Positions 1-64,000 are shown, counted from the first letter of the stretch. The stretch: DNA of 64,000 bases from Candidatus Buchananbacteria bacterium (GCA_013359225.1 JABWCG010000001.1:432916-496915); one strand, 5' to 3'. Numbers and translations are program-made. The notes: generated by a model from the letters alone, not told the origin.

Positions 1-353
1 ACCCAGTCCTCATTAGGATTTTGGACTTGCGCCACAAAATCATACCGCCCTTCCCTTCCTCCTAAAGCATCAAAACTTAAAATTTGAATATCAAGCGGCT
101 TATTCGCCTGGCGAAAATAGGAATAGTCAATCAGATTAAGGCTCAAAACGCTCAAATCCTGTTTAAAATTCTTGTCCTCAACAACCAAGATCATAAGCAC
201 CTTATATAAACTATATCCATACAGCAAAACGCTAAGCAACATTAATAAGACAATCAGCGCTTGGCGCAGTCGAATCTTGTGGCTAACATACCAATAGCTT
301 AGTTTGATTTTCCAGCCACTAACTTGATGAGGGTTTCCTGTCGCTAAAACCAT
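1..353 (-). CDS. Hypothetical membrane protein, 3' end beyond the window; ATG near 351-353, begins MVLATGNPHQVSGWKIKLSYWYVSHKIRL
   Basis: An open minus-strand frame runs from an ATG near 353 to the window edge with no stop. It contains a hydrophobic helix (LIVLLMLLSVLLYGYSLYKVLMILVV). It is missing from the ORF track, probably because it is truncated. Confidence 0.3.
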   Translation of the reverse strand, partial: MVLATGNPHQVSGWKIKLSYWYVSHKIRLRQALIVLLMLLSVLLYGYSLYKVLMILVVEDKNFKQDLSVLSLNLIDYSYFRQANKPLDIQILSFDALGGREGRYDFVAQVQNPNEDW

Positions 354-442
354 AAAAATAAAAATAGGTTATTTATATTATAACACAAAATAATCTTTCG
401 TGGGTAACCTTAATTTTCATTTGATTTTTTTTCATCAGCTCT

Positions 443-469
443 TGAAAATTTCGACGGTTATGCTATACT
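443..469 (+). promoter_or_regulatory. Candidate sigma70-type promoter upstream of gyrB (TTGAAA ... TATACT, short 15-nt spacer)
   Basis: The hexamers sit about 90 nt upstream of the gyrB start in an AT-rich leader. The spacer is sub-optimal. Confidence 0.25.
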
Positions 470-558
470 TAATACAGAAAAAAATGACTAAAAATAAACA
501 AATTTAAGCCATTTTTTAGTCATCATTGTATTGAATTTTTTTATTTTTACTCCACTTT

Positions 559-61545: not shown

Positions 61546-61628
61546 TTAAAAAACAAAATAAAAAAATCAAGCAAATCTATTATACCATTTTATGGCAAAA
61601 AAAGATAGATTTTATAAACAGGAGAAAA

Positions 61629-62948
61629 TTAATCCAAAACGTAGGTTTCCGGAATCGGCTTGATAAAGTTTTGGGCCAAAGTATATGTATAAGCCCCCTG
61701 ATTAGGAATCATGATAATATCACCCTCTTTAATTGCCTTGGCATAACAGTAATATCCGAACAGATCATACGGAGTGCACAATGAGCCGTACAAATGACAC
61801 GACAACTCTTTGGTGTCCGGTCGGGTTAAATTAACAACCGGATAATAAAAATATTCAAATAATTCATATCCAACCATATTCACACCGCCGTCTAAAATTA
61901 CTAGGTCTGAGCGTTTGACATCCATAACTTTCAAAATCAAATGCATTGATTTAGTGGAGATCGCCCGGCCGGGCTCGCAATAGTATTTTGGTTTAATAAT
62001 AGGGTCTAGGTGCAACTTGATTGATTTGGCGATTGCCTGCGCATAACCGGCCAGCGGCACCGTTTCAGTCAAATAGTATTTGTCTTTAAAATCAGCCTGC
62101 CGGCCAAAATGTTCAGCGGCCGCCTTAATCACTTCCCCCTGCGACGTGGTCCAGGGAAAATACCCCTCAAGCTGGTAGGTTTCAAACCCGCCGCCAAAAT
62201 CGATAAATTTTATTTGTGACCGATCTTCTTCACTAAGCAGTTTCAAATATTTAGCTATTTCTTTAATCAGGTTCTGATACGGCTCAACTCCCTTATTCCA
62301 ACTCATATGACACTGAATGCCCTGCAGCTGGATTTCCGGATATTTTTTAGCTTCATTTAAAAACCGCTTTAGGTCGGTCAAAGGGATGCCAAACTTATTC
62401 CAGGTATTATGATATTTGGTGGCAATCCTAACCCCTGCTCGGATAGTCGTTTTTTCCTGGCGCAAACGCACTCCTAGCCGCCGTAATTCTGTAAAACTGT
62501 CCAGATTAATAATCAGCTTCTTTCGGTATTTAATCGCTAAATTAAGCTCACGATCAGTTTTTGCCGGACCGGTAAAAATAATTTTTTTAGCGCCATATTT
62601 GATGGCTAGCTCAAGTTCGCGGCCACTAGAAACGTCCAAGCCCAAAGCCTGTCTAACAACCTCTTTGAGTAAAAATGGATGGGGATTTGATTTAACCGCG
62701 TAAAAAATTTCTAGGCGCGGAATTTGTTTAGTGAAAACCGACTTAAACTTTTTAATATCGGCTCGAACCGACTGACGGTCAAAAAGATAAAAAGGGGTTT
62801 CGTGTTTTTTAGCCAGTTTCAAAATCGCTTGCCGCTTTTTAAGGCTGGTTTTTACCACCGGCGCCAAACTGCCGCGCTTTAATTTTAAGTGTTGATCCAA
62901 ATACTTAGATACTACTTTTTTACTTACAGCATGATTTTTGGTGAGCAT
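61629..62948 (-). CDS. PLP-dependent decarboxylase of the Orn/DAP/Arg decarboxylase family (fold type III); diaminopimelate or carboxynorspermidine decarboxylase-like
   Basis: 439 aa. The PLP-lysine motif FYAVKSNPHP is present. The glycine-rich GGGFE is present. The C-terminal CHLYGSLCTPYD motif is present. Confidence 0.8.
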   Translation of the reverse strand: MLTKNHAVSKKVVSKYLDQHLKLKRGSLAPVVKTSLKKRQAILKLAKKHETPFYLFDRQSVRADIKKFKSVFTKQIPRLEIFYAVKSNPHPFLLKEVVRQALGLDVSSGRELELAIKYGAKKIIFTGPAKTDRELNLAIKYRKKLIINLDSFTELRRLGVRLRQEKTTIRAGVRIATKYHNTWNKFGIPLTDLKRFLNEAKKYPEIQLQGIQCHMSWNKGVEPYQNLIKEIAKYLKLLSEEDRSQIKFIDFGGGFETYQLEGYFPWTTSQGEVIKAAAEHFGRQADFKDKYYLTETVPLAGYAQAIAKSIKLHLDPIIKPKYYCEPGRAISTKSMHLILKVMDVKRSDLVILDGGVNMVGYELFEYFYYPVVNLTRPDTKELSCHLYGSLCTPYDLFGYYCYAKAIKEGDIIMIPNQGAYTYTLAQNFIKPIPETYVLD

Positions 62949-62952
62949 ATAT

Positions 62953-64000
62953 TTAGTAGGTGAAATGTTGTAATATCATCTTACCATATTTATTAAGTTG
63001 CCCATGATGATCGTATAATCGAAAATTGGAAATTACGGTACCCAGCACCACACCTTTAGCTAACACCTCTCCTGGTTGAGTATCAGAATAAAAGATAAAA
63101 TATCTGCCGCCACGGCTAATTTTTGTGATATCTGGCGTCACAAACCTTATTTTCTTGCCGTCGATTACATACACACCGCCCGGATACTGCTGACGAATTA
63201 AAAATTTGTCTTGGGGGCTTTGGATATACACGGTTGCACCATAAAAATTTGATTGGCGAGGAAACGCCGCAAACGTCGATCTTGCCGCCGGCTTGCGCGA
63301 GGCCGATAACATTGCCTCAAGGTACAACCGACCCGTATTGATTTGGGAAATAGTTTCCGGGAACAACACCAACTGACAGCTTGAGGCGGCGAGTCTTGGA
63401 TTAGCTTCTAAAATCTTAACGCCTAAACGAGTGGCGATAAAATCAATATTAGCATATCCGACAAAGCCGAGGCGGCGCAAACATTCCCCTAAATGATAAA
63501 ATACCGAATTAATCTCTGATGTTAATTTTGAATTGATTTCTTTAGCGCCAACCCACTGAATCCCCAAAAAATCTTTTTGCTGGTAGCGGTTTTTTTTACC
63601 GTACTGCTGACGGCGCAATGCCGATAATGCTGTCAAAGACGGACTGACAAAAATAGTAATGCCATACGATTGGCCCGGCACAAACATTCGTGCTAAATAT
63701 CGCCGACTCCCGATAATCCGCCCGGCTGAAATTAATTTTTTTATTTCAGCGGCAGTTGAAACAAAATACGTCCCTTCACCGCCCCGAGATGAAGGTTCCT
63801 GCAAAACAACTCTACCTTTTAGTTTCAAAGCGGTTTTGCCAGGACGGATAATTTGGCTTAGCGGCGCTGGTAAATTATTTTTGGCTAAAAAATTATCAAA
63901 CCAAATTTTATCTTCCAACTGCTTGGCTAATCTGAAATCAGGGGCAATCAGCGTAATGCCGTTGTCTTGAGCCCAGCGGTAAAATGACGGCTCAATGCCA
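62953..64000 (-). CDS. ATP-grasp-like protein, 5' end beyond the window (the frame stays open upstream of the TTG at 63918, which the ORF track used as its start)
   Basis: Fragments resembling the ATP-grasp B and C domains (ILEANPRL, GYANIDF). The upstream in-frame translation ...GIEPSFYRWAQDNGITLIAPDFRLAKQ continues to the window edge. Confidence 0.55.
   Translation of the reverse strand, partial: GIEPSFYRWAQDNGITLIAPDFRLAKQLEDKIWFDNFLAKNNLPAPLSQIIRPGKTALKLKGRVVLQEPSSRGGEGTYFVSTAAEIKKLISAGRIIGSRRYLARMFVPGQSYGITIFVSPSLTALSALRRQQYGKKNRYQQKDFLGIQWVGAKEINSKLTSEINSVFYHLGECLRRLGFVGYANIDFIATRLGVKILEANPRLAASSCQLVLFPETISQINTGRLYLEAMLSASRKPAARSTFAAFPRQSNFYGATVYIQSPQDKFLIRQQYPGGVYVIDGKKIRFVTPDITKISRGGRYFIFYSDTQPGEVLAKGVVLGTVISNFRLYDHHGQLNKYGKMILQHFTY

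Follow-up and report, generated by a model that had tools for sequence, protein, structure and literature searches.

Are genes that look foreign in a streamlined bacterial genome recent arrivals, or old residents that are kept looking foreign? The question is raised by a stretch of 64,000 nucleotides (64 kb; hereafter the window) from Candidatus Buchananbacteria (JABWCG010000001.1:432916-496915), a member of the Parcubacteria within the Candidate Phyla Radiation (CPR). The window has a GC content of 42.3%, and its 57 open reading frames (ORFs) annotated with Pfam form a compact housekeeping run. The original prediction had singled out six GC-rich loci between conserved operons and read them as systematic acquisitions from a high-GC donor. 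We found that the genes at these loci are closely associated with Shine-Dalgarno (SD) sequences, which most other genes of the lineage lack, and that three of the families recur in relatives; the link between SD sites and GC-richness is a new result of this analysis. We consider it somewhat more probable than the contrary that these genes belong to an old class conserved within the lineage, that they are autonomous, leadered and dependent on SD sites, and that their GC-richness is actively maintained. Each locus would consist of a sigma-70-type promoter, a leader with a strong SD site, one to three ORFs and, in all but the third locus (C3), an intrinsic terminator. The data span 64 kb of the host genome and about 10-20 kb for each relative, and promoters, terminators and SD sites are sequence predictions throughout. 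The loci and their genes are as follows.

2683..3111, minus strand: seventh locus (hyp147), 142 amino acids (aa) from the ATG at 3111 (longest ORF to 3126), between gyrB and the secE/nusG operon.
10676..10981, minus strand: C1 (HUU49_02405), a 101-aa hydrophobic, membrane-like orphan between DHFR and tmk.
17242..17562, plus strand: C2, an orphan of 106 aa whose N-terminal segment is hydrophobic; it separates the GNAT-thrS-miaA and hyp413-dnaE operons.
30153-31883, minus strand: C3, three genes, namely a pyrE-like phosphoribosyltransferase (PRT), a type-2 pyrF and a 57-aa Cys-rich ORF.
31191..31883, minus strand: C3b, the divergent pyrE-like PRT, 230 aa, in the same direction as its neighbours.
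30323..31165, minus strand: C3a, the type-2 orotidine-5'-phosphate (OMP) decarboxylase, pyrF.
30153..30326, minus strand: the Cys-rich ORF, 57 aa, overlapping the pyrF stop codon; translation MSKKPSHNYDGGGKAKYPGRPHRCDIVPDTKACKKCRTNGGMYCRDCVAWLGAAKKK.
38946..39308, plus strand: C4 (HUU49_02525), a 120-aa orphan in the uvrC/uvrA gap, divergent from uvrC and convergent with uvrA.
42288..43169, plus strand: C5, a 293-aa multi-pass membrane protein with a C-terminal soluble part, between uvrA and uvrB on the opposite strand.
57983..59140, plus strand: C6, 385 aa with an N-terminal CxxC, between the response regulator/pilB operon and an EamA-like gene on the opposite strand.
59272..59454, plus strand: a 60-aa ORF 3' of C6 with its own signals, at the end of the sixth flagged interval.

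All six flagged intervals matched ORF boundaries, and the elevation in GC that had been predicted for them was borne out. Against a background of 50 genes (GC 41.5±3.2%; GC at third codon positions, GC3, 40.0±4.0%), the candidate genes were 7 of the 8 GC-richest among 57, with a GC content of 48.8-63.2% and GC3 z-scores of 9.5, 5.8, 4.5, 4.0, 3.6, 3.2 and 1.9. The highest score belonged to C6 (GC 63.2%, GC3 0.78, z 9.5) and the lowest to C2 (48.9%, 0.48, z only 1.9); between them lay C1 (51%, 0.57), C3b (55%, 0.56), pyrF (53.9%, 0.58), C4 (48.8%, 0.55) and C5 (52.5%, 0.63). The 57-aa Cys-rich ORF has a GC3 of 0.50, and the 60-aa ORF has a GC content of 52% and a GC3 of 0.53. The six loci are all real, but the list was one short: the seventh locus at 2683-3111 (GC 48%, GC3 0.53, z 3.3) had been missed. 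For C1, the flagged interval 10676-11017 corresponds to a 113-aa ORF and the NCBI annotation to 101 aa (10676-10981). The elevation ended at the ORF ends: short promoter and terminator spacers had a GC content of 25-42% (25% in the uvrA|C5 spacer, compared with 52.5% in the adjoining gene), and the longer spacers next to C3 and C6 were at 40-45%. Amino-acid composition together with background codon preference predicted GC3 values of 0.41-0.45 where 0.48-0.78 was observed, and amino-acid composition was therefore ruled out as the cause of the GC excess. Searches of the window for Rfam families (at gathering thresholds), tRNA and tmRNA gave no match, so that the GC peaks are not RNA genes and structured RNA was rejected as their source.

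The transcription signals that had been proposed for the loci were recovered at C1, C2, C4, C5 and C6 and did not extend to C3. Promoter-like sites matching 10-11 of 12 consensus positions lie upstream of C1 (11054..11026, TTGACA-17-TAGAGT), C2 (17114..17142, TTGACG-17-TATTAT), C4 (38872..38900, TTGACA-17-TGnTATAGT, 11/12) and C5 (42187..42215, TTGACT-17-TGnTATAAT, 11/12), with an extended -10 TG in the latter two. The C6 promoter (57859-57887, TTGACA-17-TATAAA) was read by eye; it had been missed by the scan because the scan demands T at position 6 of the second hexamer. Hairpin/U-tract terminators follow C1 (10668..10652), C2 (17571-17590), C4 (39318-39337), C5 (43180-43217), C6 (59176-59212 with U8, -20.6 kcal/mol, z -5.8) and the seventh locus (2632-2671); those of C5 and C6, which the scan had overlooked, fold at about -21 to -22 kcal/mol with z-scores of -4.2 and -5.8. 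In contrast, C3 has only a weak promoter (9/12, 31994..31966), and no terminator was established after it. It is likewise co-directional with its neighbours, whereas the other five of the six loci are opposite to both of theirs. Promoter-like sequences were also found on the minus strand at the seventh locus (TTGACT-18-TACAAT, 3172..3143) and upstream of the 60-aa ORF (TTGACT-17-TGnTATTTT, 59221..59249), which ends in a hairpin with U-tract at 59453-59482.

Two observations concern start regions in the uvr cluster. The longest uvrC ORF begins at GTG 38920, and alignment with the N-termini in two relatives (L001 and L002; relatives are cited by such handles) places the real start at ATG 38866 (MSNLKQKIK), so that the C4 promoter lies in the intergenic spacer. 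The -35 box of C5-family promoters (TTGACT; AAAGTCAA on the other strand) lies about 25 nt or less from the start codon of the divergent uvrA (uvrC in L081). This placement (window 42172-42215) is conserved in 4/4 genomes, namely the window, L001, L083 and L081, and the start regions of C5 and the divergent uvr gene are therefore physically interleaved.

That the ORFs are chance frames in GC-rich non-coding DNA or RNA genes, or the product of assembly chimeras, is exceedingly improbable. Stop codons are sparse in GC-rich DNA, several antisense ORFs overlap one another here, and C2 has no NCBI annotation and an only mildly raised GC3 (its exact protein was found elsewhere only on short Logan contigs). 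However, neither an Rfam family nor a tRNA is present, and the order GC3 > GC1 > GC2 and the codon-position-specific divergence indicate coding (for C5, differences of 0.41/0.27/0.63 at the three positions, as in a protein-coding gene). Every ORF has an SD site at the correct spacing plus a promoter, with a terminator at the ORF end for all but C3. Protein homologues exist for C3, C5 and C6, and the same features recur in independent assemblies; for these three, an artefact is largely refuted.

Properly spaced SD cores of the GGAG type precede the GC-rich genes, whereas typical native genes have A/T-rich upstream regions (GC 0.25) without an SD. The cores are GGAGG for C1, AGGAGG for C2 and C3b, AGGAG for pyrF, GGAG for the 57-aa ORF, GGAG(A) for C4, GGGAGA for C5 and AAGGAG for C6; the 60-aa ORF has AAGGAGG 9 nt upstream of its ATG and the seventh locus GGAGG 8 nt upstream of ATG 3111. 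With starts set by the longest ORF, an SD core preceded 8/9 GC-rich genes and 0/48 others in the window (p = 5e-9). With starts corrected by a motif scan and alignment with relatives, the counts were 10/10 and 3/47 (p = 7e-9), the three native exceptions being pilM, a minor-pilin-like gene and an AAA-family (dNMP-kinase-like) gene. The gene calls of related contigs gave the same picture (18/19 GC-rich genes versus 10/87 others, p = 2e-12), and SD sites were kept across C5, C6, PRT and pyrF orthologues. An automated scan of 30 CPR-related loci, in which an outlier was an ORF with GC3 at least 0.12 above the locus median, found an SD before 20/30 outliers versus 44/527 others (odds ratio 22, p = 1e-13); at a mock position 28 nt further upstream the counts were 6/30 versus 27/527. 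At 90 non-CPR loci from other phyla, SD sites and GC3 were not associated (4/16 versus 412/1427). Start regions of the GC-rich genes were also more stably folded than those of other genes (-8.3 versus -5.1 kcal/mol, p = 0.005). Leaderless transcription was rejected as the native alternative to the SD, since a few candidates (M23, L11, hyp131) followed no clear rule. The AGGAGG before the native pilM is conserved in three genomes, from which we argue that the lineage probably has a working anti-SD; a 16S rRNA 3' end was found in none of the 174 fetched sequences, and rpsU was likewise absent from the window and the fetched loci.

The codon shift of the GC-rich genes is general: all codon families move towards G/C-ending codons, and first and second positions move with them. 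The preference for C over T at two-fold sites is its largest component (NNC 0.65-0.82 in C4, C5 and C6, compared with 0.2-0.4 in other genes), and that for G over A is smaller (0.35-0.50 versus 0.2-0.4). Compared with other plus-strand genes, the ribosomal protein genes L1 and L11 show no shift, and neither does nusG; together with the involvement of all codon families this makes classic translational selection unlikely; it was rejected as an explanation. Another candidate is a local mutational cause, whereby silent genes would escape transcription-associated cytosine deamination and reach a higher equilibrium GC, with the SD secondary. Both the predominance of C over T on the coding strand, with the smaller G over A component, and the generality of the shift would suit it. 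However, near-consensus extended -10 promoters argue for strong transcription unless the genes are repressed, GC1, GC2 and the amino-acid composition are shifted too, and members on the minus strand show a more even rise in G and C. We therefore regard it as very unlikely.

The third-position G/C skew of the GC-rich genes agreed with the local strand asymmetry in 8/9 cases (p = 0.02), which suggests long residence. The asymmetry itself is strong across the window: C predominates over G along the entire plus strand (GC skew about -0.05 to -0.25), and gyrB, nusG, L11 and L1 therefore appear on the C-rich strand. At two-fold pyrimidine sites NNC stands at 0.30-0.51 in plus-strand genes versus about 0.2 in minus-strand genes; background four-fold sites are near 45-58% GC, and two-fold sites are strongly A/T-ending.

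Syntenic relatives were gathered by a UvrA scan of species-representative genomes, by look-ups of C5, C6 and pyrF homologues and by a metagenome scan with ThyA. Several were recovered, with host GC contents of 33-43%. Taxon labels of metagenomic contigs are unreliable: L002 (CAZCCC010000002.1) is labelled 'uncultured Gammaproteobacteria', yet it is gene-for-gene syntenic with the window and its UvrA is 80% identical, and L046 (JAEOUO010000001.1), labelled Odinarchaeota, has a bacterial-type uvrA with uvrB and uvrC close by. Both labels are probably taxonomic mislabels or binning errors.

It had been proposed that three of the loci interrupt uvrC, uvrA and uvrB, and that these genes are contiguous in most genomes. 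Only two loci, C4 and C5, lie in the cluster, and among 40 UvrA loci with full 10-kb flanks uvrB was nearby in 14/40 and uvrC in 2/40; contiguity of the three genes is a trait of this clade. The suggested check of synteny did find them adjacent without inserts in a relative, with uvrB-uvrA-uvrC contiguous in L002 at gaps of roughly 90-130 nt. The C4 slot is empty in L001, where uvrA and uvrC are contiguous, and in L002 (gaps about 80-100 nt); it holds a C5 homologue in L081 and a 45-aa GC-rich ORF in L083. DHFR is followed directly by tmk in L162 and L136, so the C1 slot is empty there.

The slot of C5, or the adjoining one, is occupied by the same family in relatives. Among 5.8 billion proteins C5 had only 3 homologues, all adjoining uvrA on the opposite strand, GC-rich and SD-led; they lie in the uvrA/uvrB gap in L083 and L001 and in the uvrC/uvrA gap in L081, and their family GC3 is 0.57-0.68 compared with 0.23-0.45 for neighbours in these three genomes. 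An exhaustive HMMER search of 1.84 billion representatives gave 24 matches to C6 including the query (23 relatives). The member in L164 is 38% identical, occupies the same slot between pilB-response regulator and EamA-like-flavokinase genes and has a GC3 of 0.66 versus 0.25-0.36. A second, in L169, is 26% identical and lies in another slot, between an SLT-domain gene and a small ORF that adjoins tmk, again GC-rich and on the opposite strand.

The PRT-pyrF pair sits upstream of a uvrD/addA-like helicase-DciA-pheST run in L171, L172 and L173. There pyrF is 86, 59 and 57% identical, respectively, which tracks the 84, 64 and 68% of the adjacent helicase. GC3 is 0.56-0.58 in L171, 0.44-0.50 in L172 and 0.47 in L173 (0.56, 0.44 and 0.47 for pyrF itself), where the backgrounds stand near 0.40, 0.19 and 0.37; the excess is 10-31 points. 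PRT homologues at the same position are 76% (L171) and 56% (L001) identical, GC-rich and SD-led; a fused PRT+pyrF query gave nearly all matches to pyrF. The place of the 57-aa ORF is taken by small ORFs in L171 (56 aa), L172 (80 aa) and L173 (114 aa), a positional match only.

Further GC-rich, SD-led genes occur in the relatives: another OMP-decarboxylase-like gene and two more ORFs after PRT in L001 (18877-22549), a 114-aa ORF and a Fucose_iso_C-domain gene after pyrF in L173 (8893-11136) and the SLT-domain gene adjoining the C6-family member in L169 (3352-4245). The same slots thus collect members of the class. In L120, which of all the relatives is nearest to the window in its left part, small opposite-strand ORFs at 1825-2286 (-) and 11509-11853 (-) occupy the gyrB|x|secE-nusG and DHFR|x|tmk slots, the latter with 114 aa; they are mildly GC-elevated (42.6% and 45.8% versus 39.1%). 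They were rejected as homologues of hyp147 and C1, to which they show no detectable homology.

Has the GC excess persisted in these families, or is it fading? In all genes, the divergence at third codon positions from one of these genomes to another is 52-70%. Where a residue is conserved, the four-fold sites of C5 orthologues agree at 0.21-0.29, composition predicting 0.25-0.28 (z -0.9 to 0.4), yet GC at four-fold sites (GC4) is 0.48-0.68 in each genome despite this saturation. With identity at chance and GC4 high, the GC-richness of C5 is no relic of recent import; these sites appear to hold no memory of the ancestral C5 sequence, and the GC-richness would have been re-created in every lineage. 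Small residual four-fold identity was seen in pyrF and PRT (z 2-4). Family GC3 follows host GC, with a logit offset that varies rather little among the members of a family, although their hosts span 33-43% GC (pyrF 0.4-1.2, PRT 0.6-0.8, C5 0.9-1.2, C6 1.2-1.7), and the GC3 excess of the tested families in relatives is +10 to +38 points. A constant logit offset is what results when AT pressure on the whole genome is balanced by a GC-ward force specific to the gene.

These results bear on the proposal that recent or repeated horizontal gene transfer (HGT) from high-GC, SD-using bacteria filled intergenic 'safe havens' and imported GC content, SD sites, promoters and terminators together. In relatives the same families occupy the same slots with a protein divergence at least that of their neighbours, synonymous sites are saturated while GC4 is still high, and family GC3 moves with the host (0.44 where host GC3 is 0.19; 0.58 where it is 0.40), so that the copies have been evolving in place. 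For C5 no high-GC donor appeared among the 5.8 billion proteins, its homologues all lying in the same CPR context, and the promoter and terminator sequences on either side of the genes share the AT-richness of the host. Mobility genes, att sites, repeats and phage or plasmid relatives were likewise absent wherever they were sought: Pfam annotation showed no integrase or transposase among the 57 window genes; no flanking direct or inverted repeats, sequence shared between loci or att sites were found at the loci; the orphans had no matches in PHROGs, PADLOC or NCBIfam, nor did the 60-aa ORF, and the seventh locus had none in these or in Pfam; C6 had none by tblastn in phage and plasmid records, and C5 none among viral contigs. 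A phage, plasmid or defence origin was rejected on the basis of these database, record and viral-contig searches, and homologue searches for C5, C6 and pyrF made no common high-GC donor clade evident. HGT of this kind is thus quite unlikely, and the data do not support import from one high-GC donor, whether recent or systematic. Of the original prediction, the idea of accessory, self-contained units in intergenic slots that are empty in some relatives has stood; systematic import from a high-GC donor is mostly unsupported, and for the three testable families, C5, C6 and PRT-pyrF, recent import is contradicted by their GC-rich presence at matching slots in relatives.

Several observations nevertheless favour transfer or weigh against an old, actively maintained class. 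The architecture is moron-like, with autonomous units of deviant GC in slots that some relatives leave empty (PMC3594210), and transfer mostly among Patescibacteria has been documented (PMC12455944). C5 changes to the uvrC|uvrA slot in L081 and is missing from L002. The C6 family is patchy: it sits in a different slot in L169, and in two contigs of 52-56% GC its members have a roughly host-like composition, similar to that of neighbouring genes or modestly GC-richer. Transfer at some point in the history of this family is evident. In L172 and L173 the PRT has been replaced or is beyond recognition, and L001 carries a different type of pyrF. C1, C2, C4 and hyp147 are orphans with no detectable homologue, so that nothing shows them to be old; they share the full signature, and some may be recent gains. 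Background genes retain a four-fold identity of 0.29-0.38 versus 0.25, a small excess from which it follows that saturation is incomplete for some comparisons. The starts of native genes come in part from the longest-ORF rule. The argument for an anti-SD is drawn from the pilM SD, and the codon shift is unlike that of classic translational selection.

The residual identities also bear on the idea that one ancient transfer reached the ancestor of the lineage and that amelioration is still incomplete, so that GC-richness and SD sites would be slowly decaying relics without present function. The four-fold identity left in pyrF, PRT (both z 2-4) and the background genes means that saturation falls short of total. 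GC3 offsets resemble one another across lineages, which equal elapsed time would produce, and the nearest non-CPR pyrF homologues, at about 41-45% identity, include Burkholderiales (Rhodoferax, Polynucleobacter); for pyrF, an ancient transfer into the lineage is plausible. On the other hand, the four-fold sites of C5 have no residual signal and are GC-rich in four genomes, and C6 retains a GC3 of 0.66-0.78 at 26-38% protein identity. Moreover, in a host that initiates independently of the SD, an unselected 5-6-nt SD would not last at the right spacing in 18/19 orthologues while the spacers diverged. As a general explanation such a transfer is unlikely.

If the class is indeed old and actively maintained, C5, C6 and the pyrE-like/pyrF pair would have been in place before the sampled relatives diverged and been inherited mostly vertically, and their GC-richness would then be a maintained equilibrium. 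C5 and C6 would evolve fast and now and then change slot or get lost. Most genes of the lineage are AT-rich and would initiate without an SD from A/U-rich, weakly folded start regions, whereas the special class, GC-rich at all three codon positions and with stabler start folds, would need SD pairing. A GC-ward force, corresponding to a logit shift in GC3 of about 0.4-1.7, would act atop the AT-biased mutation pressure of the host. Selection on mRNA or DNA, or biased conversion, would keep the ORFs GC-rich, and the SD sites would be a requirement of GC-rich structured mRNAs, to which the default SD-independent route is closed. A bolder version, which we put forward tentatively and hold to be doubtful, is that the lineage runs two initiation regimes, a default SD-independent one for AT-rich genes and an SD-dependent one for a small GC-rich regulon, with GC-richness selected to bar the default route and a switch operated through the anti-SD state (e.g. 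bS21), perhaps at host attachment. The SD regulon may then comprise surface and membrane proteins, the pyrimidine-salvage pair and small Cys-rich peptides.

SD-independent initiation is known to use unstructured A/U-rich start regions (PMC3155529, PMC9976891). As in the SD-independent system of the Bacteroidia (PMC9976891, PMC3155529), most genes here have no SD (SD sites in 3/47 window natives and 44/527 ORFs of the 30 related loci) and weak A/U-rich start folds, beside a small SD-led minority whose sites are strong and conserved. The ribosomes of Bacteroidia are SD-blind, but those without bS21 form a subpopulation that translates a few SD-led genes (PMC9976891), and rpsU is autoregulated via these ribosomes; here, in Parcubacteria, the minority consists of GC-rich accessory genes and a few pilus genes and not of ribosomal protein genes. 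Some Parcubacteria are reported to lack the anti-SD motif and bS21 (PMC9297842).

Like phage morons, the loci each insert a single gene or a small number of genes between two that adjoin each other in relatives (PMC3594210), with their own promoter and factor-independent terminator predicted for C1, C2, C4, C5, C6 and hyp147 (C3 has only the 9/12 promoter). They differ from morons in lying within chromosomal housekeeping operons and not in a prophage, in having no PHROG matches, in being GC-richer than their surroundings and in that at least three families are conserved in position and not sporadic. With compositionally atypical genomic islands they share atypical base and codon usage, accessory or unassigned genes and absence from some relatives. 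However, they have no integrase, tRNA target, direct repeat or donor, and their composition outlasts synonymous saturation and moves with host GC. Measured against what defines a horizontal island, their composition is atypical, but the loci carry no mobility signatures, and C5, C6 and PRT-pyrF are present in relatives with no foreign donor evident. In bacteria, atypical genes mostly exceed their genome in AT content (PMC6028130); these exceed it in GC. In gene geometry only, C4 and C5 resemble an excludon: they split uvrB-uvrA-uvrC on the opposite strand, and uvrB/uvrA read-through would be antisense to them. Unlike in an excludon, strong terminators flank the inserts and may simply insulate them.

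Deviant composition is a standard flag of recent HGT, and here it marks old residents, so that composition-based HGT calls in CPR genomes could mislead. The near-perfect link between GC-richness and the SD would point to a second, separately controlled expression class within a minimal regulatory repertoire, and the combination of the two provides a simple sequence rule for finding the class in uncultured genomes. It also poses a population-genetic question: what holds ORFs 10-38 points GC-richer at synonymous sites over deep time?

As to products, pyrF is assigned by TIGR02127 (pyrF_sub2, 191.8 bits; cut-off 110.6) and PF00215 (94 bits; cut-off 27). C3b scored below cut-off with pyrE models, the best being TIGR01367 (56.9 bits, cut-off 150) and Pfam Pribosyltran (24.4, cut-off 26.3); its adjacency to pyrF suggests a role in orotate phosphoribosyl transfer. 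Together the two would convert orotate to uridine monophosphate, in an organism built around nucleotide salvage. An AF2 model of C6 (pLDDT 76) has a confidently modelled coiled-coil hairpin and a beta-sheet core; compared with the PDB it gave no significant fold match (best E-value 0.18, V-ATPase stalk and prefoldin-like coiled coils).

The remainder of the window comprises a housekeeping block (gyrB, nusG, L11, L1), a nucleotide block (dCMP-deaminase/kinase/dut/DUF3160/thyA/DHFR/tmk) and genes that include gatB, miaA, thrS, dnaE, pheST and DciA; the UvrD/AddA-like helicase, tatD, cvpA, metG, rsmI and an M23 peptidase; uvrC, uvrA, uvrB, trxB and DJ-1; and a type IV pilus cluster, the response regulator, EamA, riboflavin kinase and others. 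Immediately 3' of tatD is a 39-aa Cys-rich mini-ORF (32159-32278, minus strand; MPHLGDDCPCGSERPYGECCGAAEPCDCGSGKPAGECCY) with two CPCG/CDCG...ECC repeats reminiscent of SEC-C zinc motifs; it has a GC content of 61.7% in an AT-rich spacer and no SD. The pilus cluster contains tandem paralogous pilin-like genes of 143 and 141 aa (46877-47788; single copy in L001 and L002) and a protein of 1164 aa (50549-54043). The GC content of this pair and of the 1164-aa protein, 47-50%, stems from second codon positions, and hence amino-acid composition, and not from GC3, which sets them apart from the flagged loci.

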